The notes below the pieces were generated by a model that had not been told where the DNA came from, did not search any database, and saw only the letters and a list, made by a program, of their open reading frames with translations. A stretch of DNA of 62,460 bases from a virus (taxonomy: Duplodnaviria; Caudoviricetes). Each line of letters opens with the position of its first letter. Position 1 is the stretch's first letter. The position numbers and the translations under genes are program-made. This document shows positions 4,994-53,309 of this stretch, in pieces. The stretch lies in IMG/VR virus record IMGVR_UViG_3300027852_000006, positions 1 to 62,460 of that record; one strand, written 5' to 3'.

Positions 4994-5014
4994 GATACGC
5001 TCCTTTCGATTAGG

Positions 5015-6211: not shown

Positions 6212-6222
6212 AATACGTCCCT

Positions 6223-13945: not shown

Positions 13946-14004
13946 TGTTTCATCCCTTCAATAAATAATGCTTTTGCCTGCACTGGCTTCGCCGCTGGAT
14001 TTAA

Positions 14005-14706: not shown

Positions 14707-14772
14707 TTTTTTAATCCCTTCTAAATGAAATCTTAACTTTCTAACCCACCACAACAGTAGGCTCTATTGTTA

Positions 14773-18899: not shown

Positions 18900-19496
18900 A
18901 TGGGTAAACCAACAACAGGTGGGAAAAAAACCAAGGGTCGGCTTACGGCAGCTAATAAAAAGGCCTTTTTGCGTGCGTATCGCAAGACCGGCAATATAAC
19001 CAGTTCAGCTAAATCAGCCAAAATATGCAACACTTCCTTTTATAATATGGCCAAAAGGGACGAAGCATTTGCTGCCGATTGTGCTGCGGCTTTGGACGAA
19101 TACGCCGACTCATTGGAATTGGAAGCCGATAGACGGGCACGGGAAGGGGTAGAGGACCCTGTTTTCTATCAAGGCCAGCAGGTGGCCACCAGGCTCAAGT
19201 ATTCGGATTCTCTGCTGGCTTTATTGTTATGTGCCAATAGACCGGCCAAATTCGCAAGGAATCAGCAGCAGCAGGTGGTTGTCGGTGGCGAGGTGCAGCA
19301 TATCCACAAGCTCGAGCCAGAGGCACAGCGTCGGCAGGCAATGGAGATGGGTGAGCGTATGTCTGCATTGGGCTTATTGGATAAGCAAGACAGTGGATTG
19401 TTTGGCGGGCCGAAGGTGATAACGGAACCGGAACCAGTAGCGGTAGAGGTGGCAGCAACAGAACCGGCAGAGGAATCGGTAATAAAAGATGACTAA
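18900..19496 (+). CDS. Terminase small subunit
   Basis: KKAFLRAYRKTGNITSSAK HTH; LELEADRRAREG...KYSDSLL; coupled to TerL. Confidence 0.85.
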   Translation: MGKPTTGGKKTKGRLTAANKKAFLRAYRKTGNITSSAKSAKICNTSFYNMAKRDEAFAADCAAALDEYADSLELEADRRAREGVEDPVFYQGQQVATRLKYSDSLLALLLCANRPAKFARNQQQQVVVGGEVQHIHKLEPEAQRRQAMEMGERMSALGLLDKQDSGLFGGPKVITEPEPVAVEVAATEPAEESVIKDD

Positions 19497-21276
19497 TACT
19501 ATGTTGGCAGATGCTAGTCCATTACCACAAGACGTATGTGATGACCTTGCAAGACTTCGTCAGACTGTCCCTGCGTTCTGGATTGAGGACCATTGTAAGA
19601 TTGTCAGTAAAAGCGGCGAGCTTATTCCGCTGGCGTACAATGAAAGTCAGTGCCATACGGACCGGATTATCGGTGAAATGGAACTGGCTAAGATGCCGGT
19701 CAGGGTTATCCACCTCAAAGCTCGTCAGTTGGGTGAGACTACCAGGGGATGTGCCAGAATTTACAATAACGCTTGTACTCTCACGAACCGCAGATGTTTA
19801 ATAAGTGCTCACGACAGTGACAGTTCGATCAACATTTTCCGTAAGATTCAGTTATTTCAGGAGTGCAATCCGGAGAAAATAGCACATAAGTACAGTTCTC
19901 GCAAGGAGTTGACATTCAGTTCTGCCAACAATAGTTCAAGTATCTTGGTTGAGACTGCTGGTAAGGAGAAACTGGGTCGTGGTAGTACATTCGATGACTT
20001 TCACGGCTCTGAGGTAGCATTCTGGGACAATGCTGGCACGACCATGTTGTCAGTAAATCAGTGCATTCCGGGTATGCCTGGCACGATGTCGATTTTAGAG
20101 TCGACTGCAAATGGTGTTGGCGGTTATTTCTACGAAACATACAGGAAAGCCAAAAAGGCCAAATGTGACATTGACAATAAGGCGATGGTGATTCCTGAAC
20201 CTGACAAGCAGGATTGGAACGGTTATTACCGGGTGTTTAATCCATGGTTTGTATGCAGTGAATACAGGTCGGTGGTACCGAGTGATTTTGTCAGGTCTCG
20301 TGACGAGCAGCTTTTGGTTGATAGATACGGACTTGACAACGAGCAGTTGCAATGGCGACGCAAGGTGATATCTAGCGAGTGCAATGGTGACGGTGACTTA
20401 TTCAGGCAAGAATATCCATCTGACGACAGTGAAGCGTTTTTGGTTTCTGGTCGTGGGGTATTCGATTCGTTCATAATCAAGTCGATGGTTGACAATTGCA
20501 GGCCTGCTAAGCATATTGGTCAGATGGGCGGTCCGCAGGAATGTCCTGAATTTGACGAATACAACATGAAGTGGTTAGAGGTTTGGCAGTTACCATCGGT
20601 TAATAAGGATGATATATACGCTATTGGCGTTGACACATCGGAGGGGTTGGACCCTGAGCAGAGCAATAATCCTGACGCTCATAGTGCTCATGTTATTCAC
20701 GTCAATTCGGCTCGTGTGGTTGCCAAGATAAGTGGTCGATTTGACCCGGACATTTTCGGTGAACAGTTGGATTTGCTTGGTCGCTGGTATAATTGTGCAT
20801 TGCTTGGCGTTGAGGTGAATAATACAAGTGGTGGCAGTGTTCGCAGTATATTAAAGCGTTTGTGTTATCCCAATTTGTATTACAGGGAGATACTTACCAA
20901 GGAAATCAACACTGAGACTGACACAATTGGGTGGTATACTGACAAGGTAAGTCGTGGCATACTTGTGACTGACGGCACTAAGATGGTACGTGAGAGGTCG
21001 TTATATATACCATCTATACAGACCATATATCAGATGCAACAGTGGATTTTTGACAAGAACGGTCGGGCCACTCATACTGTTGGTGAGCATGACGACGATG
21101 TAATCAGTTTACTGATTTCATGGCAGATGGCAGCCATAGCGACTATTGTTGGAGCCAGACAGATAGTGGATACTACCGGAGAATACGCTGACGGTAGCAA
21201 TAGTGACGGTGTTCGTTTCACCTCTGACATGGTGGTTGGCGGTCATGAGTCACCTATGAGTTACCTTGACGAATAG
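19489..21276 (+). CDS. Terminase large subunit
   Basis: LKARQLGETT Walker A, HGSEVAFW Walker B, ESTANG, GVDTSEG and HDDDV nuclease motifs. Confidence 0.95.
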   Translation: MTNTMLADASPLPQDVCDDLARLRQTVPAFWIEDHCKIVSKSGELIPLAYNESQCHTDRIIGEMELAKMPVRVIHLKARQLGETTRGCARIYNNACTLTNRRCLISAHDSDSSINIFRKIQLFQECNPEKIAHKYSSRKELTFSSANNSSSILVETAGKEKLGRGSTFDDFHGSEVAFWDNAGTTMLSVNQCIPGMPGTMSILESTANGVGGYFYETYRKAKKAKCDIDNKAMVIPEPDKQDWNGYYRVFNPWFVCSEYRSVVPSDFVRSRDEQLLVDRYGLDNEQLQWRRKVISSECNGDGDLFRQEYPSDDSEAFLVSGRGVFDSFIIKSMVDNCRPAKHIGQMGGPQECPEFDEYNMKWLEVWQLPSVNKDDIYAIGVDTSEGLDPEQSNNPDAHSAHVIHVNSARVVAKISGRFDPDIFGEQLDLLGRWYNCALLGVEVNNTSGGSVRSILKRLCYPNLYYREILTKEINTETDTIGWYTDKVSRGILVTDGTKMVRERSLYIPSIQTIYQMQQWIFDKNGRATHTVGEHDDDVISLLISWQMAAIATIVGARQIVDTTGEYADGSNSDGVRFTSDMVVGGHESPMSYLDE

Positions 21277-26112: not shown

Positions 26113-28194
26113 ATGAGTAAAAAGAGCAAAAAAAAGGCTTATAATCAGGATATTAAGCTCAACTGTAAAATTGACAGCATGGTGTCCGTTGGTCGTAAGC
26201 GTGTCCAGCAATTTGCTGATATGAACCGGTTGGGTGTTCGGTATATTTATGGCGATCAGATAAGCAAGAAACGTAAAAAGAACTGGGATTATCCGGTAAT
26301 CAATCGTTGTTATGCTGACATGACTCAAGAGATAGCGATATTAACTGCTAATAATCCTCGAATAGAAGTTTTACCAAGAGAAGATGGTGATATTGATGTA
26401 GCCAAGAATGCTGGAATTGCATTGAAGGGCTATTGGTCTGATGTACTCAAGATGCGGATAAAAATCATTCAGGCCGAATATGATTGTCATATAAATGGGG
26501 TAATGATAGCTAAATGGTTTTACGAGCCTAAATCTAAGTGGAATCATAAAAAAGCCGATCAAACGGGTGATGGATGGGAAGGCGAAATCAATGTAAACAT
26601 TGTGCGACCATGTTATTTTGGTTGTGACCCTGACGTTGAGTTAGCTGTTGAGATACCCACTAAGGCAAGATTTATTTTCACTGAACGCTGGGTGGATAAG
26701 CGATGGGCGGCTCATCGTTGGCCTAAATACGCCAAGTATTTGCAGGATTGTGGTGAAATAGACAAAGAGGGCAACTTTATAAGTGATGAAATAGAGGTTG
26801 ATGATACAGGTGGCGGAATAGGTGCCGACCAGATTGGTTTTGACCAGTCAACTAACGATTGGAATGGCAAAGAAAGTGATAATCTTAGCGAAGAACAATT
26901 ACAAAAAAGGCTAGCCAATGTGATATTGGGGGTGAATGATAGCGGTAAATCTGATGATTCTTCGTCAAATAATATGTCAGTAAGAGTTCAGGAGATATAT
27001 TTTCGGGATTATACCACAAAAACTGTTGAGTCATTGAAAAGTGACTGGCCTGCTGGTCAAGGTGAAGCTGAACACATATATCAACAGGATGACGACCCAA
27101 CTTATTATGATTCTACCAAGCCTAAATATGACGAAAATGACAACACTGTTGGGCATGAAGCATTTACTGGTGATTGGCCACAGAAGGAGATAAGGCCGGA
27201 ATATCAAGAACCGTTATATCCTACTGGCAGATTTGTCATCAGGTTGGGTGGTGATGTTATTGTTGAAGATAGGGCATGGGAATATGATAATTGGCCGTTT
27301 GCGGTAGCTCCATATTATCTATTGCCTCATATATGGCAGGGCGTCAATTGCGTAGAGCTTTCCCGTGGGTTCCAAGACTGGATGAATACAATTGCCAGTC
27401 ATCTGACTAATTACATCAAGTATTTTTCTGATCCTCACATATGGGTGGAAGAGGAAGCGTTAGTTAGGGACAGTGACAAGAAAAAACAAACTTTTCCTAA
27501 TTGGGCTGGTTCTATTGTACGATTCGCCAGGGGCAAGATAGGCCGTGCTATTCGACATGAACCACCTTCATTGCCACCAACATTATTTCAGATATTTGAA
27601 TTATTTAGAAGTTCTGACCAAGATTTGAAGGGTGTGCATGATGTAACCCAAGGCAAAGCGTCCACAGGAAAAAACACATTGGGCGAAATGGATATGCTCA
27701 ATCGCAATTCACGCCAGAGGCTTGCCTTGCAAGGTGCTTTTTTAGATGTATTCTTGCATCAGATTAACACCGGTATATTAGAGTTGATGCAAAGGCATTT
27801 AGACCCCGGCAAATGGATAAGATGGACTGGCGATAATGCTGATTCGGCAAAATCTTCTATTCAGTGGACGCAGGAAATGGTAGACTCTGAATTTGATGTG
27901 ATATTGGAGCCAGTTTCTACGCTTCCATACGACGAGGAACGCGAGTCAGGTAAATATAAGATGGCTTTAGATGTGGTCGGCCCGGCTATGCTGGAAGATT
28001 TTCTAAAGAAATTAAAGATTCAGAACGTACCTAAAATTATGGCTAACCATGAAATTGTTGGTCCATTGACTCAACTATTGGAAATGGCTAAACAAAGTGG
28101 CGTGGGACCTGAACAGTTACTTATTGCTGTAAAAGCTCAATTGGATCAGGTTAAGATTATGACAGAAAAAGGAGAAACTGATGGTATCGAATAA
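26113..28194 (+). CDS. Portal protein (P22/BPP-1-like)
   Basis: 693 aa; PVIN...NNPRIEVLPRE, WPFAV.P, QD.MN, GVHDVTQG, FDVI motifs; position before scaffold and capsid. Confidence 0.85.
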   Translation: MSKKSKKKAYNQDIKLNCKIDSMVSVGRKRVQQFADMNRLGVRYIYGDQISKKRKKNWDYPVINRCYADMTQEIAILTANNPRIEVLPREDGDIDVAKNAGIALKGYWSDVLKMRIKIIQAEYDCHINGVMIAKWFYEPKSKWNHKKADQTGDGWEGEINVNIVRPCYFGCDPDVELAVEIPTKARFIFTERWVDKRWAAHRWPKYAKYLQDCGEIDKEGNFISDEIEVDDTGGGIGADQIGFDQSTNDWNGKESDNLSEEQLQKRLANVILGVNDSGKSDDSSSNNMSVRVQEIYFRDYTTKTVESLKSDWPAGQGEAEHIYQQDDDPTYYDSTKPKYDENDNTVGHEAFTGDWPQKEIRPEYQEPLYPTGRFVIRLGGDVIVEDRAWEYDNWPFAVAPYYLLPHIWQGVNCVELSRGFQDWMNTIASHLTNYIKYFSDPHIWVEEEALVRDSDKKKQTFPNWAGSIVRFARGKIGRAIRHEPPSLPPTLFQIFELFRSSDQDLKGVHDVTQGKASTGKNTLGEMDMLNRNSRQRLALQGAFLDVFLHQINTGILELMQRHLDPGKWIRWTGDNADSAKSSIQWTQEMVDSEFDVILEPVSTLPYDEERESGKYKMALDVVGPAMLEDFLKKLKIQNVPKIMANHEIVGPLTQLLEMAKQSGVGPEQLLIAVKAQLDQVKIMTEKGETDGIE

Positions 28195-29781: not shown

Positions 29782-30915
29782 ATGGCTAGTAATTTAACTG
29801 AAGCGACCAGGGAAATGGTCGATAAAACATGGAGAAGCGCTGTAAGTTATGGCAGTCCATTGTTTACTCGTTTGATTGAACGTAAGCAAGTGATTGAAGG
29901 TGGTCTTAAATTCCAGCAATTGCTTGAAACTTCTGATATGCAATCACTTGTGCAGGAATATGGGCCCAATGACGGTCTTGTTGGTGGTTCAAAAGAATTT
30001 ATTGATAAGCCGGAGTTTGTAAGGGCTTTCATTCAAGTTCCTTTGGAAAAGAGTGTTGACGAAAGTGTCATGAATGCTCCGAAGGGCGACCATCAGTTGC
30101 TCAATATTGCCAAGAAAAATACGCAGCGTGGCATAAAGGGCGTCAAATTACAAATGATGCACCGTATGTATGGCTGTGCTACTGATACTGAAATTGACGC
30201 ATATCATACTTATATGCAGGGTCTACCGTCAGCTTTGCTGGAAAATACCACTTATGGTAGTATTGCCAGGTCTGGTACTACTACTGGTGGCTTTTGGCAA
30301 TCTGCCGATTATTCAGCATGGGACACAGCGGTCAATATTAACAAATACAATGTTAATACATGGCTTGACTCTTGCTTGGAATACTCAGAAGATCGCGGCG
30401 AATTTCTCATTGTCATGGGTAATACACTTTATAACCGGCTCAAAGGCATTTTTGAGGCATCTAACACATACACGCCAAAGGCTAATAAATCTGAACAGGG
30501 GTTTGAGTCGATGGAATTTGATGGCATAGAGATCGCCAAGTGTTATTTGCTTGATAGAATGGTTTCGACTGGTTCAACCAATAACCAGGGAAGTGTTTCT
30601 ATTTTGCATAATGGGTCCAAGACAATCAATTCCGATATAGGAGCAACTACATCCGCTGGTCTATGCGGAAATTCCTCTTATGATGGCAATCAGTATGTCT
30701 TTGTTCTTGACTTGCGAACGTGGAACTTGAGATATAGTTTTAATCCAGATGACAGTGGTAAAAGGGCTGGTGATAGTCCTTTCATCATCACTGATTATTT
30801 CGATCAATCTCAGCTTGAGGGTGGTGTTGAAAAAGCACTAGCTCGCGTTAAGTTCCGTGGCAATCTATGTTGTGACCTTCCCAATCATAATCTTATGAGA
30901 GCGAATGTCTCTTAA
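29782..30915 (+). CDS. Major capsid protein (HK97 fold, BPP-1 Bbp17-like)
   Basis: SPLFTRL..IEGG, TYGSIAR..FWQ, GFESMEFDG, GNLCC.LP; strong RBS; canonical position. Confidence 0.85.
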   Translation: MASNLTEATREMVDKTWRSAVSYGSPLFTRLIERKQVIEGGLKFQQLLETSDMQSLVQEYGPNDGLVGGSKEFIDKPEFVRAFIQVPLEKSVDESVMNAPKGDHQLLNIAKKNTQRGIKGVKLQMMHRMYGCATDTEIDAYHTYMQGLPSALLENTTYGSIARSGTTTGGFWQSADYSAWDTAVNINKYNVNTWLDSCLEYSEDRGEFLIVMGNTLYNRLKGIFEASNTYTPKANKSEQGFESMEFDGIEIAKCYLLDRMVSTGSTNNQGSVSILHNGSKTINSDIGATTSAGLCGNSSYDGNQYVFVLDLRTWNLRYSFNPDDSGKRAGDSPFIITDYFDQSQLEGGVEKALARVKFRGNLCCDLPNHNLMRANVS

Positions 30916-31571: not shown

Positions 31572-32219
31572 ATGGCTAATTATTTCGATAATCCTATCAC
31601 CGGTTATAAGCAATATCGTGGTAAGTTCGATGGTGGTTTTATAGAACATGGAGAGTATTCGTTTACGACTACCTCGACCACCGTGTCAGTTCCAACTTAT
31701 TTCAGTAAGATTGTTGCGGTTATGATTACACCGCAGGAAACACTGGGATATAATGAAACTCTTTTTGCCGATCTTACTATTGCCACTGGAACAATCACTG
31801 TTTCACGGGTAGCGAATACTAAGTACCGTGAATTTCATTTTGCTATCGACAATGGTCAGTTTGCCAGTGATGATTTATCGGCAACTCCTTTGATGATAGC
31901 TCAATCGGCAATGACTTTGACAGCGGTAGAGGTGTATTGCGGTACAATAAATACTGGTACACCGATATTTGATCTTGGCGATGCGGTCGATGACGATGAG
32001 TATGTAGAATCTGAATCGGTGACTGGCGGCGATGGTGCTACAATTGAGTGTACTATTGACGATTCTACTGTGGCTGCTGATGACGTGCTTATTGCTCAGA
32101 CAACTGGTGGTACTGGTGGTACGCCTGCGGATTGGTGTATAAGTTTGGCTGCTACCGAAGCTGCGGGCTCTTACACGAGTGCATTAACCTTTAACTATAT
32201 GTTTGTCGGCATCTATTAA
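31572..32219 (+). CDS. Putative head decoration protein, family D (copy 1)
   Basis: EHGEYSFTTTSTTVSVPT...ITVSR...LTFNYMFVGI. Confidence 0.6.
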   Translation: MANYFDNPITGYKQYRGKFDGGFIEHGEYSFTTTSTTVSVPTYFSKIVAVMITPQETLGYNETLFADLTIATGTITVSRVANTKYREFHFAIDNGQFASDDLSATPLMIAQSAMTLTAVEVYCGTINTGTPIFDLGDAVDDDEYVESESVTGGDGATIECTIDDSTVAADDVLIAQTTGGTGGTPADWCISLAATEAAGSYTSALTFNYMFVGIY

Positions 32220-32235: not shown

Positions 32236-32994
32236 ATGGCGGTAGATATTACCAATCACTTTGCCGGTCATATGAATGGGGTGCAGATTGAATATGGTCA
32301 AAGTTCTTTTAGCGGAACAGGGTTGACGGTGCAAGTGCCTTGTAGTTTCGGTAAAATTACAGGTTGTTTCATAACGCCTAAACAAGAGACAAACAGTGCA
32401 GAGCGTTATGTTTGCGATTTGGTTTCCGACGGTGGTGTTACGACTGTGACACGAGTGTGTGCGTTGCGGCAGGTGAGTTTTCCTATTGATAATGCTCAAT
32501 CGGAAAGCTCCAATTTGCCATTTACGCCATTGATGATTGCTCAGCGTGGCATGGTATTGTCAAATGTCAATTGGTTTCATGGCACAAGCTGGGGGCCAAG
32601 TAGTCCTTTGTTTTATCTTGGCACTTCAGCTAGCAATGGAGCCTATATCAATGGTTCTGCGATAAGTGGTGCAGCGACTAACAACACAGCGACTACATTT
32701 AGTAGTTTTGTTGCTTCCAGTATTGATGATGGAACAGTTATCGGTTTTAAGACGACTGATGGGCTTGGCCAATCCTCTACGCCGTCTGCGACTTCTACGG
32801 GCACTCCTAGTGCAACGTCAACCGGTTCTGCGTCTCCGTCATCTACCCAATCAATTACTGCATCCGCAACGGATTCGGCGACCGCTTCTGCTTCTGTACA
32901 AGCAGAGCAGCCGTCTGACTGTTTTGTTGCAGTCAATTATTTTACGCCGGAAAGTGATTTGCAGTTTAGCTATATCATTTTAGGTATATGGTGA
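32236..32994 (+). CDS. Putative head decoration protein, family D (copy 2) with Ser/Thr-rich insert
   Basis: Paralog of copy 1 plus SSTPSATSTGTPSATSTGSASPSSTQSITASAT. Confidence 0.6.
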   Translation: MAVDITNHFAGHMNGVQIEYGQSSFSGTGLTVQVPCSFGKITGCFITPKQETNSAERYVCDLVSDGGVTTVTRVCALRQVSFPIDNAQSESSNLPFTPLMIAQRGMVLSNVNWFHGTSWGPSSPLFYLGTSASNGAYINGSAISGAATNNTATTFSSFVASSIDDGTVIGFKTTDGLGQSSTPSATSTGTPSATSTGSASPSSTQSITASATDSATASASVQAEQPSDCFVAVNYFTPESDLQFSYIILGIW

Positions 32995-33024
32995 TAGTTA
33001 TGTTTTTTAAGTAAGGATAACATT

Positions 33025-33324
33025 ATGGCATTTGATGAAAATACAATGTTTACCAGTTCAATTAGTGGGTTTGTAGTTGATCTTGGCGAATACTCCTTTG
33101 TTACTACAGGCACAACCGTGGAAATTCCGACTAGGCTATCTGTCTGTTACGCTTCATACGTTATGTCCAAAGTAACCATGACAAGCGGCATAGAGATTTT
33201 TTTCAGTGATAAAATTATCACTAATGGGGCTATTACAGTTAGTAGATTAGCTCAGACAGATACCGGGGGATCACCAGGTTATACAAGTGGACTGACAATT
33301 AGTTATATGTTCATCGGTGTTTGA
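33025..33324 (+). CDS. Putative head decoration protein, family D (copy 3, short)
   Basis: GEYSFVTTGTTVEIPT...ITVSR...LTISYMFIGV. Confidence 0.6.
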   Translation: MAFDENTMFTSSISGFVVDLGEYSFVTTGTTVEIPTRLSVCYASYVMSKVTMTSGIEIFFSDKIITNGAITVSRLAQTDTGGSPGYTSGLTISYMFIGV

Positions 33325-33347
33325 AAGTTATCGTTCCTTTTCTCCTG

Positions 33348-33396
33348 CTTGCAGTCGGCGTAAGACTAAGGTTTTGCGTCGGCTGTAAGTTTTTTT
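33348..33396 (+). terminator. Intrinsic terminator after the head genes
   Basis: cttgcagtcggcgtaagac/gttttgcgtcggctgtaag stem followed by T7. Confidence 0.8.
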
Positions 33397-33429
33397 GAAA
33401 AGGGAGTATTTGTTCTAGGAGAAAATCTT

Positions 33430-36144
33430 TTGAGTAATGAAAAACTGGCAATAGTTATACCGGCTCGGAACGAGATATATCTACAGAGAACCATTGATGG
33501 AATATTGGAAAAAGCTGAAGGTGATATAGAAGTTATTGCTATCTTAGATGGTTACGATGTGCCTGTGACCCAAGAGGGTAAAGACTCACGGGTAAAAGTA
33601 ATTCGTAACAAGACTTCTATAGGCCAACGGGCGTCAACTAATCTTGGAGCAAGAAGTAGTGACGCTAAGTATTTCATGAAATGCGACGCTCACGTATCGT
33701 TCGATCAAGGCTTTGATGTTAAATTAGAGGCTGATTTTGAGGACGATTGGACGGTAATGCCGCAGATGTATATTATTGATGGACAGGAAAGGATTGCGAC
33801 CTGTCCGAAATGTCACACCAGAACAACCTCGAAGAAAGACAGCAAGGGCAAAAAACACCCTTACTATTGCAAAGCGTGTGATAGATTATATGAGGAACAG
33901 GATTGCTTAGTTATAGATAATCCATCTTTTTGGCAGCCGAAATGGCATAAGAAAATGGATTTTATGTATATTTCCAATGAACCTGGGTTAGTCCATAGGG
34001 CCCAATACTGGTATAAGTTTGCCAAGCGACCAGAAGCTAAGCAAGATTTGGTAGAAGTAATGACTGGCCAGGGAGCGGTATGGTTTCAAGACAGGAAGAG
34101 ATTTTTGGACCTTGGCGGCCTTGACGAAGGTCATGGAAGTTGGGGTCAAGTTGGAATGGAGGTAGCTTGTAAGGCATGGTTGTCTGGTGGTCGACATTTA
34201 ATCAATAAAAAAACATGGTTTGCTCATTGGTTCCGCGGTAATAATCCTGGGTTTCCTTATCCTTTACGACAAAAGGATATGAATTACGCTAGGGATTATT
34301 CAAGAGACTTGTGGCGTAACAGCAAATGGCCATTACAAAAACTACCACTTACATGGCTAGTACGTAAGTTTTGGCCGGTACCAACATGGACTGATGAAGC
34401 GATAACTGAATTAGATAAAACATGTAACAAAAAAGCAATTATTTATTATACAGATGGCACTTTGGATAGCATACTAGCTGAACAAATACGCAAGAGATTG
34501 AAAGAAGCTGCTGGCGATATACCAATTATATCTGTATCACAAAAGAAAATGTATTTTGAAACCGATGTCCGCGTTGGCAAAATAGGCAGATCACATTTGT
34601 CAATGTTCAAACAGATATTGGCAGGACTGGAAAAAGCTAAGGAAATGGGAGTTAATGTTGTATTTTTGGCAGAACATGATTGTCTTTATAGCCCTGAACA
34701 TTTCAAGGTTTCTCTTTACAGTGATAAAAAGTTTTTCTATAACAATAATTTCCTGTGGGTACGACATGGAGGAAAGAAACATGGTCAGTACTCAAAGCCC
34801 CCCAAGTCTCGCAAGTTGATGTCACAATTGACATGTAACAGAGAGTGTCTGACTAAAGCAATAAAAGAGAGAATTGCTATGTTGGAAAAAGGCTTGGAAA
34901 TGCCACGTGGTATAGTTGGTATATGTGAGCCTGGCGCCAATGAGCAGGTATTAAAGAGAAAAATACTAGAACAATGCAAAGACAAGAATATAGACACAGG
35001 ATTTCTTGATGGATTTTTTGATTGGAAATCAGAAGATTTTGCCACAAAACGATCTAATTTGGATATCAGGCATGGTGGGAATTGGACTGGTACCCGTAAT
35101 GGAACTGATGTTTCTGACACCGCTCCATATTGGGGAAAGATGTTACATGCTTTATCTGGTTTGTCTTACAGGGTTATTGACAGTAAATGGTATCAACCTG
35201 CGACTATAGACGGAGTCAAAATGTTGGCACGATTTTCACGGTCGCGGCAGAGTAAGTTTTATGGGCAAGGTAGGTGGGATAATTTTATAGAACCGCTTAT
35301 TCCATTCAAAGACTGTAAGAATCGTGTTTTCGTAGACGCCGGATGTAATGCTGGCATGTATCTTGTTAATGCCGCCGATATGGGATTTGGGAAAGTTATA
35401 GGCATTGAAGCAAATAAAACTTATTTCGATCAAGCCTGTTTTTTGCTGGAGCATTATGACCATAAAATAAAAGTGATCAATAAAACTATTGGTGGTGATA
35501 TGCAATTAAAAGAATTGCCAATCGCTGATATTACATTAGCCGCCAATGTATTATATTGGATCAAACCTAAGTTGGTTCAACAATATGTAGATCAGTTAGC
35601 AGAAAAAACACTTTATTGTTTAGTGGTTAGCAGGGATATGGAGAGCAGGAAATTTGCCAGCAAGGCTAATGGTGATTTCGTTAAAGCGATGTTTGGTTCT
35701 AACTGGCAGTTGGAAAAAGTCATTGAAAATGTGGATCAATTTGGTGATCCGGCACCAACGCCAATGTTCAGTATGCTATTTAAGAGTAATCTTATAACAA
35801 GATATAAAGTTGATGATCTTTATAACGAAGAAACATTTTGCAACAAAGCCGTATACAGAGATAGTTATAAAAAATTCAACGAAAAAGCAATGATTGGCCG
35901 TATTTTTGATGTGAGGACTACAGACTTTTATAAGTATGTAGTTAGTCGGGGTAAATGGGGCAATGATCCAATTGCAAGAGTAAGGAAGTGGGGACAGACG
36001 GCTTATGATATCAAGAAAAATGGACAAAAGACTCCTATTGAAATCAACTCGAACGGTTCGATAGAACATGGACTCCATCGATTGATTGTCTGTCATCAGT
36101 TAAATAAGGAATATATTGTAGCATACACCAAAAGAAAGAAATAG
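33430..36144 (+). CDS. Multidomain glycosyltransferase: ppGalNAc-T-like GT-A with Zn ribbon, second GT-A, SAM methyltransferase, ParB/Srx-like tail
   Basis: IVIPARNE, KCDAH (DxH), GGLDEGHGSWG..GME...KAWLSGG, HWFR; FLAEHDCLY; VDAGCNAG; IEHGLHRL. Confidence 0.85.
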   Translation: MSNEKLAIVIPARNEIYLQRTIDGILEKAEGDIEVIAILDGYDVPVTQEGKDSRVKVIRNKTSIGQRASTNLGARSSDAKYFMKCDAHVSFDQGFDVKLEADFEDDWTVMPQMYIIDGQERIATCPKCHTRTTSKKDSKGKKHPYYCKACDRLYEEQDCLVIDNPSFWQPKWHKKMDFMYISNEPGLVHRAQYWYKFAKRPEAKQDLVEVMTGQGAVWFQDRKRFLDLGGLDEGHGSWGQVGMEVACKAWLSGGRHLINKKTWFAHWFRGNNPGFPYPLRQKDMNYARDYSRDLWRNSKWPLQKLPLTWLVRKFWPVPTWTDEAITELDKTCNKKAIIYYTDGTLDSILAEQIRKRLKEAAGDIPIISVSQKKMYFETDVRVGKIGRSHLSMFKQILAGLEKAKEMGVNVVFLAEHDCLYSPEHFKVSLYSDKKFFYNNNFLWVRHGGKKHGQYSKPPKSRKLMSQLTCNRECLTKAIKERIAMLEKGLEMPRGIVGICEPGANEQVLKRKILEQCKDKNIDTGFLDGFFDWKSEDFATKRSNLDIRHGGNWTGTRNGTDVSDTAPYWGKMLHALSGLSYRVIDSKWYQPATIDGVKMLARFSRSRQSKFYGQGRWDNFIEPLIPFKDCKNRVFVDAGCNAGMYLVNAADMGFGKVIGIEANKTYFDQACFLLEHYDHKIKVINKTIGGDMQLKELPIADITLAANVLYWIKPKLVQQYVDQLAEKTLYCLVVSRDMESRKFASKANGDFVKAMFGSNWQLEKVIENVDQFGDPAPTPMFSMLFKSNLITRYKVDDLYNEETFCNKAVYRDSYKKFNEKAMIGRIFDVRTTDFYKYVVSRGKWGNDPIARVRKWGQTAYDIKKNGQKTPIEINSNGSIEHGLHRLIVCHQLNKEYIVAYTKRKK

Positions 36145-36146
36145 TA

Positions 36147-36335
36147 ATGGCGAAGAAAAAAACAAAAAGTAAGAGTGCTGTGCCTAGTTATCCAGTCTTG
36201 CAAAGAATTAACGCTTCTATTACAAAAGCCAAAAATGGTTATGTAGTTGAATCTTACGGGCCAAATGGTGAATCAACTTATATAGCTAAAACTAAAAAAG
36301 AGGCCAAAGAGCGGGCAGCTAAACTTTTGGGATAA
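36147..36335 (+). CDS. Small basic hypothetical protein
   Basis: ITKAKNGYVVE motif. Confidence 0.55.
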   Translation: MAKKKTKSKSAVPSYPVLQRINASITKAKNGYVVESYGPNGESTYIAKTKKEAKERAAKLLG

Positions 36336-36341
36336 AAAATA

Positions 36342-37034
36342 ATGGCTCTTAATTTCACAGAACTTGGGACAGAGTTGCAAGCTGAACTTGGCAAAACTGG
36401 CGACACTTCTCTTATTACAACCACAAGGGTTGGAAGATGGATTAACCAGTCATTGATAGATATTATTTATCAATGGCCCGGTTTGCGTGATGTGAATGTT
36501 TTGGATAAACATACATGGCAATGTCAAAGTGATACGTATGAATATGATGTAAAGGATTTTATTGATAAGCCGATAGCTCATATTATAAAGATCAGGTATG
36601 TTGACACAACGAATAGTAATTATCGTCAGATAGAGCCATTTACTGGTGGGCTGGATCAATGGGATGCCCAATATCCTTATATTCCTAATTTAAGCACTGG
36701 TATTCCGACGTGTTATTGCAGACGTGGTAATACAGTCGAGTTGGCTCCGATGCCTGGAAGTGACCAGGACTTAGTTCCTATCTGGATAGAATACACTTAT
36801 TTGCCGCGGGCATTGTCTGGGACCGACACTCCTGTTTTAACTAATTTTGATGAATGTTTAATTCAATGGGGCAAGTCTTATGCGATGCGGCTATTAGGTA
36901 AAACCAACGAAGATACTGCTATGTTGATGGCAGCTAACGAGCAAAAACAATATGCCATGCAATTAGTAGGTGATCGAGTAAAAGGTGAAAGGGATTGGGA
37001 TTACATGGACCAGATTCCTTACAATGGTCCGTAA
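36342..37034 (+). CDS. Head-tail adaptor (tubular protein A / gp4-like)
   Basis: RWINQSL, GIPTCY, LAPMP motifs; position. Confidence 0.7.
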   Translation: MALNFTELGTELQAELGKTGDTSLITTTRVGRWINQSLIDIIYQWPGLRDVNVLDKHTWQCQSDTYEYDVKDFIDKPIAHIIKIRYVDTTNSNYRQIEPFTGGLDQWDAQYPYIPNLSTGIPTCYCRRGNTVELAPMPGSDQDLVPIWIEYTYLPRALSGTDTPVLTNFDECLIQWGKSYAMRLLGKTNEDTAMLMAANEQKQYAMQLVGDRVKGERDWDYMDQIPYNGP

Positions 37035-37061
37035 GTTATAAAAATCTTTGAGAGGCAACCC

Positions 37062-37286
37062 ATGATATTAGAACTATTGGCACAAGGAAATCTTGCTGTA
37101 GAACCTGGGATTACAATTGGTACTGGAGCGGCTGGGTTGATGGTTGGTATTATTGCTAAACATTATTGGCCAAAAAATGGGAGATATACCACAAAAGAAT
37201 TATGTAATGAAAAACATAAAAACCTTGAGGGGTGGATGAAACGCATTGATTGCAAATTAGACGATGCCTTAAATAACCGGAGGTAA
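37062..37286 (+). CDS. Small TM plus coiled-coil protein (holin-like candidate)
   Basis: One hydrophobic segment, then C..KHK.L...MKRID.KLD. Confidence 0.4.
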   Translation: MILELLAQGNLAVEPGITIGTGAAGLMVGIIAKHYWPKNGRYTTKELCNEKHKNLEGWMKRIDCKLDDALNNRR

Positions 37287-37291
37287 AACTA

Positions 37292-37690
37292 ATGGCAGGG
37301 ACAGCTACCGTTAGAATAATGGCAGCGATAACTGATTTAGGTCAGGTAGCACCATTATCAACGACATATACAGTAAGTGGAGTGGATGAATATGCAGGTC
37401 CTTTTTATGAAGAACTCGCCGCTACAACTACAGTCGAGGTGAGCAGTGGACAAATTGATACAGTAACAGGAATGTATATTAAATTAGTATCTGGGGGGAC
37501 AACTGCGGCAACTGGATTATCAATTGATATAGCCGCTGCTTCTGACTGGACTACGGGAGACATGGTTTTGGTGTCCGGTCAATCAATCTTCTTTGTGCCT
37601 GTTTACACAGCAGGCGATGAAACCTATATTAAAAACCTGAATAGCTCGGCAGCAACGATACAATATCTTGTTTTTGGTGATAGTACCTGA
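37292..37690 (+). CDS. Putative virion protein
   Basis: Beta-rich ORF in the tail module. Confidence 0.55.
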   Translation: MAGTATVRIMAAITDLGQVAPLSTTYTVSGVDEYAGPFYEELAATTTVEVSSGQIDTVTGMYIKLVSGGTTAATGLSIDIAAASDWTTGDMVLVSGQSIFFVPVYTAGDETYIKNLNSSAATIQYLVFGDST

Positions 37691-39582
37691 TGCCTGCTGT
37701 AAAACCTATTGTAATACCAGGAATCTTTGGCGGTCTTAATAGCGGTTCTCCCAGAGAACTTATCAGTCCGATTGAATCTCCGTCGATAACAAATTTTATA
37801 GTTAAAGACGGCGTATTACAGAAACGAACAGGTTATACTGATAATTCAGGGGCAATAAGTACTAGCTCTGCTACTCCGAGTGCGACTATCACTGGGACAG
37901 GCAGTGCCAGCCCAACTACAACAGGCACACCGAGTGCTACGACAACAGGTACACCAAGTGCCACTACAACGGGCACGCCGTCTGCTTCATCAGGTCAATC
38001 TGACTCGATTACACAATCAGCTACCCAATCAATTACGCAGTCGGCTACCCAATCTATCACACAGTCGGCAACTTCATCTTTAAGTACAACATCTAGTGCG
38101 ACTCAGTCTATTACCGCTACGGCAAGTGCGACAGGATCGGTATCAGGTTCGGTAGGTGCTACGCTTGCCAAGTTTTTTCATGGTCATCACTATCAGGACG
38201 GCGTATCTGGTGATAAACGGTTCTGGTTATTTGGTGAGGATGTTTTATATAAAGATGGTATAGATGATATGTGGCACTCTGGGGCTGGGACTAATGACTT
38301 TCTAACAAATAGCGCTGAAGATTATTATTTTACTACAACAGAGATTGTCGAGTTAGACGATTATAAAAACTATATGATTGTTAATCAGTCGGATACCAAG
38401 CGTATTGGCGGTACGTTCCGAAAAGTATGTTATTCAAGTAGTCCTACATCACCATTGGTTATACTTGCCGGTGGTGATGGTTATAATGGCACCGGCACTG
38501 ATCATTATTGCAAACGGGTAATAAGTTATGGTGACCATTTGCATTTACTTCATACAAAAGAACATCTTGGCGGTGAATGGCTGGATATGTTCCAACGCCA
38601 CAGATGGAGTAATCTTGCCCATTTTACTGCTACCGCCGATTGGAATGATGTTGCTACAGCGGGAGCAGGATACAAAGACTTGAAAACAGATTTTGGGTCT
38701 ATAATGAATGGCGAAGTTTTAGTAGATACTCTTTATGATTATCTGGAAGGTGCCATTTATGCGTGTTATAGAACTGGAAGTAGCACTGATCCATTTCATT
38801 TTGAGCCAATGCTGGCTGGATTAGGATTATATTCGCCTCGTCTTTTAGCAAGTAATGGCGAGTCTCATTTTTTCGTTGGTAGCGATCATAATATATATCA
38901 GTATTATGGTGGTAGGAATAAAGTGCCAATTGGCGATAAGATAAAAACTGAATTTTTCGACAATATCAATAATACTCAAAGTAGTGGTTATGCTAGAGCG
39001 GATCGGTCATGGGCTTTTGTTTTGCGTGATATTGAAGCTGTGATATTTGCCATACCAACTGGTAGTGGTAATACTGATCCAACATTGTTTTATGTTTATT
39101 TTTGGCGTGATGGTCGTTGGGATAAATGGGACTACATTGATACTATTTGTGGAATGGGTAATTATGAACGACCATCAGCAATGAGTGTAAACGATTTGCC
39201 GATATTTTCTGATAGCAATGGTTGTATTTATCAATACGATTATTCGTCAACCGATGATGACGGTATAGCTATAGACGCGACAGTAGAGACTAAAGATTTT
39301 GTAATTGATTTGAAAAATGAATATCGGGATATGAATGTTTGGTTTGAGGCTAGTGGCGATGGAGCATCTTCGTCAGTTGACGTGTCGGTTAGTGTTGATT
39401 CTGGAAATACTTTCAGCACTGCTGTTACTAAGACAATAACGAGTACTTGGGATTTGTATAAAGCGAATTTCAATGTTTCTGGTTATGTGATGCGATTCAA
39501 ATTCCGTAATAATACAGTAGGGAAAAAATTGTTGTTGGGTAGAATAAGATCGGAACTCGTGAAAAGCAACGAAAAGGGTTAG
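37690..39582 (+). CDS. Tail nozzle / packaged-DNA stabilisation protein with mucin-like Ser/Thr insert
   Basis: FGGLN...LQKRTGY N-terminus, RWSN, propeller-like body; ~100-aa S/T tract at about 37858-38152. Confidence 0.7.
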   Translation: MPAVKPIVIPGIFGGLNSGSPRELISPIESPSITNFIVKDGVLQKRTGYTDNSGAISTSSATPSATITGTGSASPTTTGTPSATTTGTPSATTTGTPSASSGQSDSITQSATQSITQSATQSITQSATSSLSTTSSATQSITATASATGSVSGSVGATLAKFFHGHHYQDGVSGDKRFWLFGEDVLYKDGIDDMWHSGAGTNDFLTNSAEDYYFTTTEIVELDDYKNYMIVNQSDTKRIGGTFRKVCYSSSPTSPLVILAGGDGYNGTGTDHYCKRVISYGDHLHLLHTKEHLGGEWLDMFQRHRWSNLAHFTATADWNDVATAGAGYKDLKTDFGSIMNGEVLVDTLYDYLEGAIYACYRTGSSTDPFHFEPMLAGLGLYSPRLLASNGESHFFVGSDHNIYQYYGGRNKVPIGDKIKTEFFDNINNTQSSGYARADRSWAFVLRDIEAVIFAIPTGSGNTDPTLFYVYFWRDGRWDKWDYIDTICGMGNYERPSAMSVNDLPIFSDSNGCIYQYDYSSTDDDGIAIDATVETKDFVIDLKNEYRDMNVWFEASGDGASSSVDVSVSVDSGNTFSTAVTKTITSTWDLYKANFNVSGYVMRFKFRNNTVGKKLLLGRIRSELVKSNEKG

Positions 39583-51092: not shown

Positions 51093-51572
51093 TCAGTTTT
51101 TCAATGATGTCTTGTAGTATTTTTCGATTAGTTCATTGTCTATTGTAAGCCCCTTTGGCAAAACACCTATTAACATGTATGGTTCAATGGTAACCCACCA
51201 TGGTGTCCCTTTTTGATGTGTCAATGCGGACAGTTGTAGTCCAAAATAGTTTTTGTATCCATCCCAAATGGCCTCCAGAAATTTTATTCCATCGCAGTCA
51301 TCTGGTGGCACACAATATTCTATTGGTGCAGTGATTGGGTTGTTGCGATGTTTTTTAAGACTCTGGTATATAGATTCTATTGCAGGACCATATTTCCATG
51401 CTTCGGCGCGCTCTTCAAACAAAGGCTTACTCAACAACGCTAAATGCCAACCATGGGCAATATAAGTCAATTTATTGCCTTGTATGGGTGTTATAGGCAC
51501 CTTTTCTTCAATTCCCTTTCTTATAAAGAAATTTACGATTTGTTGTGGGTCATAATTCATGTTAGCCCTCAC
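51093..51572 (-). CDS. Panacea-domain (DUF4065/SocA-like) antitoxin-like protein
   Basis: NKLTYIAHGWHL...PLF.E..EAWKYGP, LSALTH..GTPW. Confidence 0.85.
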   Translation of the reverse strand: MRANMNYDPQQIVNFFIRKGIEEKVPITPIQGNKLTYIAHGWHLALLSKPLFEERAEAWKYGPAIESIYQSLKKHRNNPITAPIEYCVPPDDCDGIKFLEAIWDGYKNYFGLQLSALTHQKGTPWWVTIEPYMLIGVLPKGLTIDNELIEKYYKTSLKN

Positions 51573-51945
51573 ATTTCATTTGTTTTTCTAACACCCTAAC
51601 TAATCGTTCATTTTCTTCGTTTATCTCATTTTCTGTTGTGTAGCGACTTTCTGCTAACCACGATATTTTACTTAAGAATAAGTGCATTGCCTCGTGCCTT
51701 GCGTGTGACTCTGGTGTACAGTACTCGCCTACATCGCTTTTGTCTATTTCAGTACAAAGGGTGACAACCGCAAGTTTTGCTGGCTCACTTACATGTATTG
51801 ATGCGTAGGCTCCGTTAATTGGTTCATGGCGATAAGTAATGCGGTATCCATTCAAACCCAACTTGTCAATATACCGATCAAACTCACGCTTGAATCTGTT
51901 AAAATGAGTCTTTGTTATACGCATCGAATTTTCCTTTCTAATCAT
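51562..51945 (-). CDS. Small HExxH metallopeptidase-like protein
   Basis: ARHEAMHL plus downstream EENE. Confidence 0.6.
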   Translation of the reverse strand: MIRKENSMRITKTHFNRFKREFDRYIDKLGLNGYRITYRHEPINGAYASIHVSEPAKLAVVTLCTEIDKSDVGEYCTPESHARHEAMHLFLSKISWLAESRYTTENEINEENERLVRVLEKQMKCEG

Positions 51946-52029
51946 GGCATGTAACTTACTGCGAAATAAGGTGTTATGTGAATTGCAAATTTTTGTTGCA
52001 TCGGCAAGCTATAATTCGTATACTTCAAT

Positions 52030-52102
52030 GTACTCGGTGGCCATTGGTTTCCCATGTAAGAGCCGAAGGAGATGGACTCGCCTTTGAGCGGGTCTTTTTT
52101 TT
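52030..52102 (+). ncRNA. Putative ~70-nt small RNA ending in an intrinsic terminator
   Basis: TTGCAT-17-TATACT at 51996-52024; gactcgc/gcgggtc stem followed by T8. Confidence 0.4.
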
Positions 52103-52172
52103 AACAAATCCTATCTTTATATGTCCTCTGGGTATATAAATACTTTATTTCTTTTGTTTCTCCCTGATTATG

Positions 52173-53309
52173 TCAGATATACCTACGACCACGGCAGTGC
52201 TGGTTGTCTTTCTTGCTAAACTTCTTGCCATACTCCTCAATATGTTTAATGAAACTTTTCCCTATAACTTCGCCGAGTTTTACGGGTACTGCATTGCCAA
52301 TCAATCGACCGATAGTTTTGCGTTGAATAGGATATCCTGTTCGCACAAATTTGTAAGCCTTTGGAAAGCCCTGCAGAATTGCTCCTTCCCTGAGTGATAT
52401 CGCTCTATTTTGCTTTGGATGTCCGAAACGACCGTTGCCAAAACCATAAAACTGAGTCGTGATTGTAGGTGCTACTTCATCCCATTGCATACGACCATAT
52501 ACACCAGAATAAGTCTTGCCTGTTTTTTTCTTATGGCATTGTGCAACTAATTTGAAATTCCAATCTCGCCATGTACCTCCAGGTTTGGAAGCCTTGATGC
52601 GTTTCAAATTTATTGGTGACAACATACTTGACTGATGTATCGGATCCTTTTCGTAAACACCACCGGCTACTATCGGTGGTAATTTACCAATAGCGTCACG
52701 AACGGTTTTGAGCTTTGTTTTTTTCTGACGAGAAAGCATTTGTATTGGTCCTAATTTGGATGCTAACAGTACAAGCCTTCGCCTATGTTGAGGAATGCCA
52801 TAATTAGAACATCTGACAATCTGATAATTCACTTCGTAGCCTTCTTGCTTCAGATCCGAAATGAATCCATCAAATATATCATATTTTACCAAGCCTGGGA
52901 CATTTTCCATCGCGACAAGTTCGGGGGATAGTTCTTTTATGAGCCGGAAAAACCCTATCAACAACCACCAGCGGTGATCTTCAAAATTGGCCTTAGCAAT
53001 TTTTTGATTGTAGGACGAAAACGTTTGGCAAGGAGCACATCCAGCCAATAAACGTATTGTTCTTGGAACATATTTAGATTCAATTTCTTCCAATTCCACA
53101 TCATGAACGGATTTCAAAAGAAATTCAGAATTATTGTTTGCTGTATACGGATATTCACACGCAGGATCAATGTCAACTCCAAGCCTTACATCAATTCCTG
53201 CTTTTTCTAAACCCTTAGTTAAGCCACCCACACCACAGAATAAATCTATAGCAGATATTTTTGTTTTAGTCTCAAAGGAGCTCTCTATTTTTCTTTTGCG
53301 ATTTACCAT
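52173..53309 (-). CDS. C5-cytosine DNA methyltransferase (orphan)
   Basis: DLFCGVGG, GCAPCQ, ENVPG, PQHRRR, LREGAILQGFP, IGNAVP. Confidence 0.95.
   Translation of the reverse strand: MVNRKRKIESSFETKTKISAIDLFCGVGGLTKGLEKAGIDVRLGVDIDPACEYPYTANNNSEFLLKSVHDVELEEIESKYVPRTIRLLAGCAPCQTFSSYNQKIAKANFEDHRWWLLIGFFRLIKELSPELVAMENVPGLVKYDIFDGFISDLKQEGYEVNYQIVRCSNYGIPQHRRRLVLLASKLGPIQMLSRQKKTKLKTVRDAIGKLPPIVAGGVYEKDPIHQSSMLSPINLKRIKASKPGGTWRDWNFKLVAQCHKKKTGKTYSGVYGRMQWDEVAPTITTQFYGFGNGRFGHPKQNRAISLREGAILQGFPKAYKFVRTGYPIQRKTIGRLIGNAVPVKLGEVIGKSFIKHIEEYGKKFSKKDNQHCRGRRYI

Follow-up and report, generated by a model that had tools for sequence, protein, structure and literature searches.

The complete virus record IMGVR_UViG_3300027852_000006 (62,460 bases with direct terminal repeats, CheckV 100%; hereafter the window) encodes within its late virion operon a protein of 904 amino acids (aa), and the genes on both sides of it encode proteins with related Ser/Thr-rich tracts. 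Our analysis indicates that this protein is probably the enzyme of a phage-encoded, cytoplasmic, mucin-type-like O-glycosylation acting on the tract-bearing proteins of the virion module. We favour this interpretation because the domain homologies and folds, the position of the gene in the virion operon, and both the co-occurrence and the co-variation of enzyme and tracts support it.

The enzyme gene (33430-36144, + strand, as are all features of the late operon) begins with a TTG codon 8 nt after an AGGAG sequence. It lies between the head-module dec paralogs and the genes for the head-to-tail adaptor and the tail nozzle. An earlier reading of this DNA (the original prediction) had placed the open reading frame (ORF) within a structural operon, and this placement is real, as the neighbouring genes have terminase, portal, adaptor and nozzle assignments. 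The motifs quoted at that time, MKCDAHVSF, GQGAVWFQDRKRFLDLGGLDEGHGSWGQVGMEVACKAWLSGG...FAHWFRGNNPGFPYP and CPKC...CKAC, are all found in the translation.

Domain 1 (aa 1-325, 33430-34404) belongs to Pfam family PF00535 (E=1.2e-10), which is represented by this one gene only in the complete genome. When the single enzyme sequence was compared with the PDB, the best matches were GalNAc-T10 and GalNAc-T2, both weak (E=0.002-0.004). Using a profile of 39 family members, the best 13 matches were polypeptide GalNAc transferases (ppGalNAc-Ts, glycosyltransferase family GT27; E=2.8e-12). A profile of 13 full-length homologues (alignment A4) likewise returned ppGalNAc-Ts as its best 15 matches (E=3e-14 to 3.3e-9). 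The A4 match forms one stretch, with profile positions 6-245 aligned to residues 32-288 of GalNAc-T1, and covers the whole catalytic domain; bacterial GT2 structures matched the N-terminal half only, at E=1e-8 or weaker. D86-A-H88 of the enzyme aligned with the DSH/DAH of GalNAc-T2 and GalNAc-T1, where the Mn-binding DxH replaces DxD. SWGQVGME...FAHWFR aligned with WGGENLE...VGHVFR of GalNAc-T2, that is, with the Gal/GalNAc-T motif and the third His, which in VGHVFR is a Mn ligand. D86, H88, W238, G239, E244 and H266 were near-invariant among the 39 family sequences. The profiles and residues together make domain 1 a homologue of the entire GT27 catalytic domain, in agreement with the likeness to ppGalNAc-Ts that had been proposed.

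Domain 1 also contains the predicted CxxC...CxxC insertion, a zinc-ribbon-like element at aa 125-150 (33802-33879) with a weak Pfam match to Zn_ribbon_PaaD (E=0.0068). It occurs in most homologues of a second enzyme alignment (A2) and is missing from several, for example P0037 and P0046. Pfam scans of the enzyme and of 13 homologues revealed no ricin-type lectin domain (ricin/CBM13). Furthermore, no membrane anchor was detected, since no 20-residue window of the enzyme contains 15 or more hydrophobic residues, and the GT-A domain starts with its first beta-strand right at the N-terminus. Because the catalytic features of GT27 are present while lectin domain and membrane anchor are absent, we call the enzyme GT27-like and not a member of the family in the eukaryotic sense.

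For domain 2 (aa 330-580, 34417-35169), a sequence search against the PDB gave no match. The AF2 model (pLDDT 93.8, pTM 0.91) displays a GT-A or NDP-sugar-transferase fold. Foldseek searches with this model were led by GlcAT-P (GT43), BoGT6a (GT6), WrtF, PBCV-1 A64R and EXTL2 (E=1e-5 to 1e-4), and a VIA fold search by IspD (Z 12.5, root-mean-square deviation (rmsd) 3.2, 170 residues aligned), with GT-A transferases at Z 11-12. An invariant E415-H416-D417 directly follows the fourth strand (residues 81-86 of the model). Since this is the place of the DxD motif in GT-A enzymes, we read domain 2 as a putative second glycosyltransferase, its catalytic class being suggested by the motif. The second GT-A domain of the original prediction thus corresponds to a GT-A-type fold in the model and in both fold searches.

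Domain 3 (aa 582-788, 35173-35793) is a class I S-adenosylmethionine (SAM) methyltransferase, and here all approaches agree with what had been predicted. It matched a PHROG methyltransferase family (E=1.2e-5) and PDB profiles (E=1.2e-4), its SAM loop G638-C-N640-A-G642 (GCNAG) is invariant, and the Pfam families Methyltransf_25, Methyltransf_11 and Methyltransf_23 were detected in 6-9 of the 13 homologues (Methyltransf_25 in 9). The closest folds were NodS (Z 18.5, rmsd 2.5, 171 residues aligned) and, by Foldseek, CmoB (E=2.5e-10); all 50 matches listed for the C-terminal model were methyltransferases or proteins of methyltransferase fold.

The remaining tail (aa 789-904, 35794-36141) is helical with a ParB/Srx-like end. 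It matched PHROG 21315 (E=0.002) and PHROG 12305 (ParB-like, E=0.0078), and Pfam ParB_N was found weakly in 3 of the 13 homologues (best E=0.038). A DG[DN]HR loop is conserved (EHGLHR in the window), with G881, H883 and R884 near-invariant. Of the fused architecture that had been described, the second GT-A domain and the methyltransferase therefore stand, and the ParB/Srx tail has weak matches throughout. In an enzyme-less relative, a large internal-protein homologue (L082:17039-21334) contains a ddrB-like domain of the ParB superfamily (E=4.7e-17), which indicates that, in this phage group, proteins of the virion module have ParB-type domains regardless of the enzyme. The methyltransferase-plus-tail unit exists as a separate 323-aa protein in L063 and is fused to domain 2 alone in L054-L056, P0059 and P0069. 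Thus, the four parts of the enzyme represent modules of one recurring toolkit.

The candidate acceptors are encoded on either side of the enzyme gene. Upstream lie three paralogs of the head module. dec1 (31572-32219, 215 aa) lacks a tract, is conserved in relatives and aligns with dec2 and dec3 at the N- and C-terminal ends (alignments A1 and A6). dec2 (32236-32994, 252 aa; A1 and A6) carries the tract, and dec3 (33025-33324, 99 aa; A1) is a short form that consists of the two ends only. The dec2 tract spans aa 171-222 (32746-32901, ...SSTPSATSTGTPSATSTGSASPSSTQSITASATDSATASASVQ) and contains 52% Ser plus Thr (S+T) over 52 aa, with a maximum of 0.63 in 30 aa. Downstream, the second candidate is the tail nozzle protein (37690-39582, 630 aa), whose identity was confirmed by homology to the SU10 tail protein: a profile of 11 homologues (alignment A3) matched 7z47_G (E=2.3e-14) and 9nwi_Y (E=8.8e-16) in the PDB, as well as chains named nozzle (gp16, 8zkk_O and 8zkm_E; E=0.0014). 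Its tract (aa 47-155, 37828-38154) is built of TTGTPSAT and TQSATQSI tandem repeats, encoded by two 24-nt tandem arrays (37918-37980 and 38011-38069) plus flanks, and again reaches a maximum of 0.63 in 30 aa; the S+T content of the two tracts is 52-55%. An insertion at this site is found in three of the ten homologues with a complete N-terminal end (the window, P0123 and P0124; A3).

Both tracts had been predicted, the one in dec2 as absent from its paralogs and the one in the nozzle as related to it, and alignment A1 and the peptide words shared between them bear this out. Among 72 non-overlapping ORFs of at least 80 aa, only dec2 and the nozzle gene, which flank the enzyme gene, reach 60% S+T in 30 residues; the next densest ORFs reach 0.53 (a poly-Thr stretch in a replication-initiator-like protein) and 0.50. 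The former, at 60640-61716 on the - strand and outside the virion operon, matches a PHROG family (E=4.8e-30) and owes its rank as the third densest spot to a run of eight Thr (STTTTTTTTYPERV). The dec2 and nozzle tracts share 14 of 43 4-mers (TPSAT, GTPS, QSIT and SASP among the shared peptides). Such sharing between the tracts of one phage amounts to 0.33 in the window and 0.39 in the relative L097, versus 0.05-0.21 between genomes, even when orthologous proteins are included. At the DNA level, the TPSAT unit is encoded by ACGCCGTCTGCGACT in dec2 and by ACACCGAGTGCTACG in the nozzle gene, with Ser as TCT versus AGT, and the best shared DNA block of the two tracts has 73-76% identity over 33 nt. 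As the same peptide is written in different codons, including a different Ser codon family, the likeness of the tracts exists at the peptide level and does not stem from a recent DNA copy. A motif that is kept for the resident enzyme would fit this pattern better than recent slippage or copying.

If enzyme and tracts belong together, their co-occurrence should be visible in related contigs, as the original prediction had pointed out. We therefore used the nozzle alignment to search contigs of viral and metagenomic origin and obtained relatives that share the same gene order: portal, capsid-position protein, dec paralogs, adaptor, nozzle and fibre. Near-duplicate loci were merged (L082=L083, L081=L095, L084=L090=L091, L088=L089, L092=L093). 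The enzyme was present between dec genes and adaptor in three lineages, namely the window, L088/L089 (965-aa form) and L097 (1210-aa form), and in all three the tract of the dec2 orthologue is inserted at one and the same column of alignment A6. L097 has a nozzle tract too; its tracts, (SA)n and (TQ)n, reach 0.57, which is below the 0.6 threshold, and were found by reading the sequences. Neither enzyme nor tract was present in L081/95, L082/83, L084/90/91, L085, L092/93 and L096, and the same holds for the distant L086. The dec2 orthologues of the enzyme-less L092 and L096 lack the insertion (A6). None of the 112 ORFs of seven enzyme-less loci matched a Pfam glycosyltransferase, and the 95%-complete record to which L083 belongs gave no PF00535 match over its entire length. 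The records of L081 and L085 are fragmentary, and for L092 and L096 the absence refers to the locus and not to the whole metagenome record.

Tracts were thus found in 3/3 lineages with the enzyme versus 0/6 without it (hypergeometric P=1/84 by our own arithmetic). In the nozzle tree, the enzyme-bearing phages do not form one clade, as L097 groups with L092 and L096 (support 98/96), and the tree forces at least two changes of enzyme state; given phage mosaicism, the cassette rather than the nozzle could have moved. In the syntenic relatives, gain or loss of the enzyme goes along with gain or loss of the tracts. L099 was left out of the count as its contig ends where the enzyme would be. It encodes a 722-aa nozzle (L099:2178-4343), whose Thr-rich tract of 99 aa is inserted elsewhere in the protein, and in the enzyme's slot before the adaptor it has an ORF for an FkbM-like methyltransferase (L099:9-551). 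In L086, a radical-SAM/B12-binding gene and a GNAT acetyltransferase gene (L086:5036-6151 and L086:12713-13204) are found inside the virion module and may represent another kind of virion protein modification.

The association extends beyond close relatives. A search for related loci with the single enzyme protein gave 25 pattern matches of which none was confirmed, and alignment A2 was then used instead. The enzyme family comprised at least 1791 proteins at E≤0.001 (among 8000 candidates scored) and, searched with A2, at least 196 confirmed places in IMG/VR. We analysed 80 of these 196 loci, which have nothing else in common with the window but one nozzle homologue, and compared them with 80 control loci sampled by an arbitrary 14-mer. 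At least one tract ORF was found in 37 of the 80 family loci at an S+T threshold of 0.6, in 52 at 0.55 and in 64 at 0.5, versus 5, 8 and 19 of the 80 random loci. After merging of near-duplicates, the counts were 36/70 versus 4/62 at 0.6 (Fisher P=1.0e-8) and 49/70 versus 7/62 at 0.55 (P=3.8e-12), at a mean G+C content of 0.46 for family and 0.48 for random loci. The tracts in the family loci are mostly (SxSPSSS)n, with Ser at every second residue. All 44 of 44 tract ORFs lie on the strand of the enzyme gene (background 91%). Among 147 flanking ORFs of 32 loci, 33 had a named PHROG category: 22 tail, connector or head, 10 sugar, methyl or other enzymes, and 1 endolysin.

An independent collection of genome bins gave a comparable picture, with a tract ORF in 22 of 61 family loci, often starting no more than a few hundred bases downstream. 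These 61 loci (L218-L278, from one-per-species prokaryote genomes) all derive from metagenome-assembled genomes, mostly of the Candidate Phyla Radiation (CPR)/Patescibacteria and DPANN archaea, and the family members in them may be cellular or prophage-borne. Some are located on contigs of 190-916 kb, and giant SxSPS-repeat proteins of up to 2529 aa often follow them. It is conceivable, if somewhat doubtful, that the large family of phages and ultra-small prokaryotes as a whole represents the prokaryotic and viral counterpart of mucin-type O-glycosylation. It would then be a cytoplasmic line that initiates, extends, methylates and perhaps, through the ParB/Srx-like tail, phosphorylates glycans on insertable Ser/Thr repeat cassettes. 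These could enter any virion protein that is exposed and would evolve in step with the resident enzyme, giving each phage a private acceptor motif.

For the window itself, we propose that the 904-aa protein is a soluble, late-expressed and phage-encoded line for protein O-glycosylation. Domain 1 would transfer the first sugar from a nucleotide sugar to Ser/Thr residues of the dec2 and nozzle repeat tracts, in the cytoplasm of the host and either ahead of particle assembly or in its course. Domain 2 would add a further sugar, the SAM methyltransferase would modify the glycan, and the ParB/Srx-like tail would possibly bind a nucleotide. The particle would thereby carry flexible tracts decorated with glycans, both on the surface of the head and at the tip of the tail. 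The sugar transfer, its acceptor, the identity of the sugar, the order of the steps and the presence of dec2 on the particle are what we infer; the benefit to the phage would presumably be shielding, stability or adhesion.

A number of observations weigh against this proposal. The fold score of domain 2 is tied between glycosyltransferases and nucleotidyltransferases of the IspD type. The location of the dec family on the particle is deduced from gene order: the family had no match in Pfam, PHROGs or the PDB profile search, and its Atlas rows were all below the bar for naming, so that the label 'decoration', under which these proteins had been introduced, is positional and not a family assignment. 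In the merged set, 34 of 70 family loci were without a tract at 0.6; either enzyme and tract need not be paired within 10 kb, or acceptors may be less obvious there. A tract ORF was directly beside the enzyme gene in 13 of 44 cases, with 10.0 expected (P=0.18), and adjacency is therefore not used as evidence here. As virion modules were not at the centre of the random loci, some of the enrichment could be due to the type of module. A named structural PHROG was assigned to 2 of the 45 tract proteins of other loci (11 had any PHROG match and 5 a Pfam match). When aa 1-580 of the enzyme were compared by tblastn with 50,697 deposited phage records (E≤1e-3), no mycobacteriophage or actinophage matched, including Che8 gp110 and Corndog gp38, and the sole match was a fecal metagenome phage, weak and covering 15% of the query. 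With no BLAST-level relative among these phage genomes, the family is not linked to any experimentally studied phage enzyme. Finally, the weakly ParB-like tail and a C5 cytosine methylase gene at 52173-53309 would suit an enzyme that acts on DNA.

Some of these points would also fit tracts that are glycosylated for a purpose outside the virion, or tracts that are plain disordered spacers riding on the same mobile accessory cassette as the enzyme. The virion role of the dec family is deduced from position, the tract proteins of other loci mostly lack an annotation, immediate adjacency does not exceed chance, and on the 190-916 kb contigs of CPR bins the acceptors could be cell-surface proteins. 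Nevertheless we consider this unlikely for the window: the nozzle is a tail protein by its SU10 homology and shares its tract motifs with dec2, the tracts do not form separate cassette genes but interrupt conserved genes of the virion core, and their peptide motifs have been kept through synonymous and Ser-codon-family changes.

Modification of host envelope glycans in the course of infection (O-antigen, teichoic acid, capsule or S-layer glycan), which might serve to block superinfection, would leave the tracts as unrelated linkers. Pfam places domain 1 in PF00535, a general GT2 family. Transferases for polysaccharides and teichoic acid, namely TarS, TarP and the hyaluronan and chondroitin synthases (Z 11-12), are among the fold neighbours of domain 2, and in other loci the family is found beside UDP-glucose dehydrogenase and heptose-activating genes. 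Moreover, serotype conversion by phage GT2 enzymes is textbook knowledge (see also the available parts of PMC12619734). However, the enzyme has no membrane segment for work at the envelope, which also speaks to the action on host polysaccharide that the original prediction had named as its possible undoing. The gene lies on the structural strand in the late virion operon, and the closest solved relatives act on peptides and not on lipid-linked glycans. Together with the co-variation of enzyme and tract in syntenic relatives and an association at P=1e-8, this makes an envelope substrate quite improbable.

Hypermodification of the phage's own DNA, in which the enzyme would glycosylate and methylate a modified base while the ParB-like tail binds DNA, and which draws on the C5 methylase and on phage GT-A enzymes for 5-hydroxymethylcytosine that often lie near ParB-like or methyltransferase genes (bioRxiv 10.1101/2023.12.21.572611, in the portion available), is very hard to credit: the published DNA-modifying GT-A enzymes are, according to the same portion, TarP/JGT-like with R..DDD..EDY motifs rather than GT27 and cluster with Tet/JBP or thymidylate-synthase-type genes, no such gene (PF12851 or PF00303), and hence no 5-hydroxymethyl-pyrimidine pathway of the kind that would turn the earlier claim towards DNA, was detected in six frames of the complete genome at E≤1, the C5 methylase is 17 kb away in the block of opposite strand, the neighbours in other loci that have a category include just 1 of 33 related to DNA, and the tract association would be left unexplained. 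The C5 methylase gene (E=4.2e-56) is part of a pair at 51093-53309 on the - strand, together with a SocA/Panacea antitoxin-like gene (E=3.8e-16).

The late operon that houses the glycosylation candidates is a + strand block from approximately 18.9 to 51 kb. It begins with the small and large terminase genes (TerS/TerL, 18900-21276; PHROG E=2.5e-32 and 6e-21) and the portal gene (26113-28194), which is of SU10/P22 type by Pfam and matches a PHROG portal family (E=2.8e-22). A scaffold-like gene, the gene for a conserved 377-aa protein in capsid position (29782-30915; by position the putative major capsid protein), a gene for a 202-aa protein and dec1, dec2 and dec3 follow. The PDB profile search gave no match for the 377-aa and the 202-aa protein. 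Behind dec3 come the 904-aa ORF, the SU10-type adaptor (36342-37034; Pfam SU10_adaptor E=1.3e-9), the nozzle, and fibre-like and large internal proteins. Between dec3 and the enzyme gene, a terminator-like hairpin of 20 pairs followed by a T run (33347-33390) was identified by its match to the consensus; it may indicate, and would fit, expression of the enzyme by read-through at a level below that of the head genes.

On the - strand, amid early and replication genes, a second gene of the capsid family is located (55337-56491; Pfam SU10_MCP E=5.6e-83, PHROG major head protein E=6.9e-73), which by BLASTP is unrelated to the 377-aa protein; the latter belongs to no known family. The - strand regions 4334-6529 and 13118-14754 contain three genes for beta-solenoid-like repeat proteins (5015-6289, 13118-13945 and 14005-14754), with 18-nt DNA repeats and weak to moderate matches to FapA, bactofilin and MinC_C. 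A DUF6745-like protein of 589 aa is encoded at 57488-59257 (- strand), with tandem DNA repeats of 12, 36 and 48 nt at 58285-58991.

Within the literature covered, glycosylation of virions by phage enzymes is documented only for mycobacteriophages (accessible parts of PMC11600133 and PMC12363180). O-glycosylation of the virions of Che8, Corndog and Myrna was described by Freeman et al. 2023 (Cell Host Microbe), as cited in the accessible parts of PMC11600133, PMC12363180, PMC12619734 and PMC12582341; according to the first two, it blunts recognition by antibodies. A glycan shield has been proposed as its benefit. As proposed for the window, these phages employ glycosyltransferases of their own, and in cluster O also an O-methyltransferase, to modify their own capsid and tail proteins. 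In those sources, however, the glycans sit at the C-termini of capsid and tail-tube subunits of siphophages of Actinobacteria and are made by separate enzymes. The window instead encodes one four-domain fusion with a GT27-like start, internal tandem-repeat acceptors in a head paralog and the nozzle, and a podophage-type virion. We found no account of GT27-like phage enzymes beside Ser/Thr tracts in a literature search at the level of listings and abstracts that left subscription journals largely outside its scope.

The eukaryotic ppGalNAc-Ts, which in animals initiate the glycan chains of mucins (GT27; GalNAc-T1 1xhb/8v9q, GalNAc-T2 2ffu/4d0t, GalNAc-T10 2d7i and Toxoplasma T3 8uhv), share with domain 1 the full-length GT-A homology, the DxH, the WG..E and the third His. 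Mucin PTS domains and the presumed acceptors of the window are both Ser/Thr tandem repeats containing Pro and Ala. Unlike the ppGalNAc-Ts, the window enzyme has neither a signal anchor nor a C-terminal lectin domain, contains a zinc-ribbon insertion, is fused to a GT-A domain, a methyltransferase and a ParB-like tail, and would work in the bacterial cytoplasm.

A cytoplasmic setting is also found for the serine-rich-repeat adhesins of Gram-positive cocci, whose Ser-X repeats are O-glycosylated in multiple steps by GtfA/B and then by GT-A enzymes such as GalT1. The family resembles this system in that it lies beside (SxSPSSS)n proteins in other loci, and GalT1 (5hea) resembles domain 1 in its N-terminal half (E=6e-8) and domain 2 in fold (Z 11.6). 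The adhesin system differs in its initiating GT-B (GT4) pair and its secreted adhesin acceptors, and no phage is involved. PBCV-1 A64R (2p72/2p6w), which domain 2 matched in Foldseek at E=5e-5, is likewise a virus-encoded soluble GT-A enzyme for the virus's own capsid protein; the virus is a eukaryotic one, the glycans are atypical and N-linked, and the likeness is at the level of the fold (9% identity). In WbdD-type terminators, a methyltransferase and a kinase cap a glycan chain. WbdD (4azt) resembles the C-terminal model (Foldseek E=7.5e-9) in that its SAM methyltransferase is joined to another module that uses nucleotides, although the match concerns the common methyltransferase fold and the window tail is ParB/Srx-like and not of protein-kinase fold. 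A capping role for this part of the enzyme might be supposed by analogy, as speculation.

Compared with these systems, the window would add a different enzyme lineage, a single-polypeptide architecture, internal repeat acceptors and a podophage-type virion. The same pairing of enzyme and tract recurs in many unrelated uncultured phages and in CPR and DPANN genome bins. If our reading is true, glycan-coated particles would be a widespread phage trait, with a bearing on adsorption, particle stability, adherence to mucus or biofilm, immune recognition of therapeutic phages and the identification of virion proteins by proteomics. Bacterial glyco-engineering would gain a soluble, compact enzyme whose acceptor peptides are short and defined. 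The finding would also bear on the origin of GT27. Under the broader and somewhat doubtful reading of the whole family, glycan-coated virions would be common far beyond the actinobacteriophages, and GT27 would have deep viral or prokaryotic relatives.

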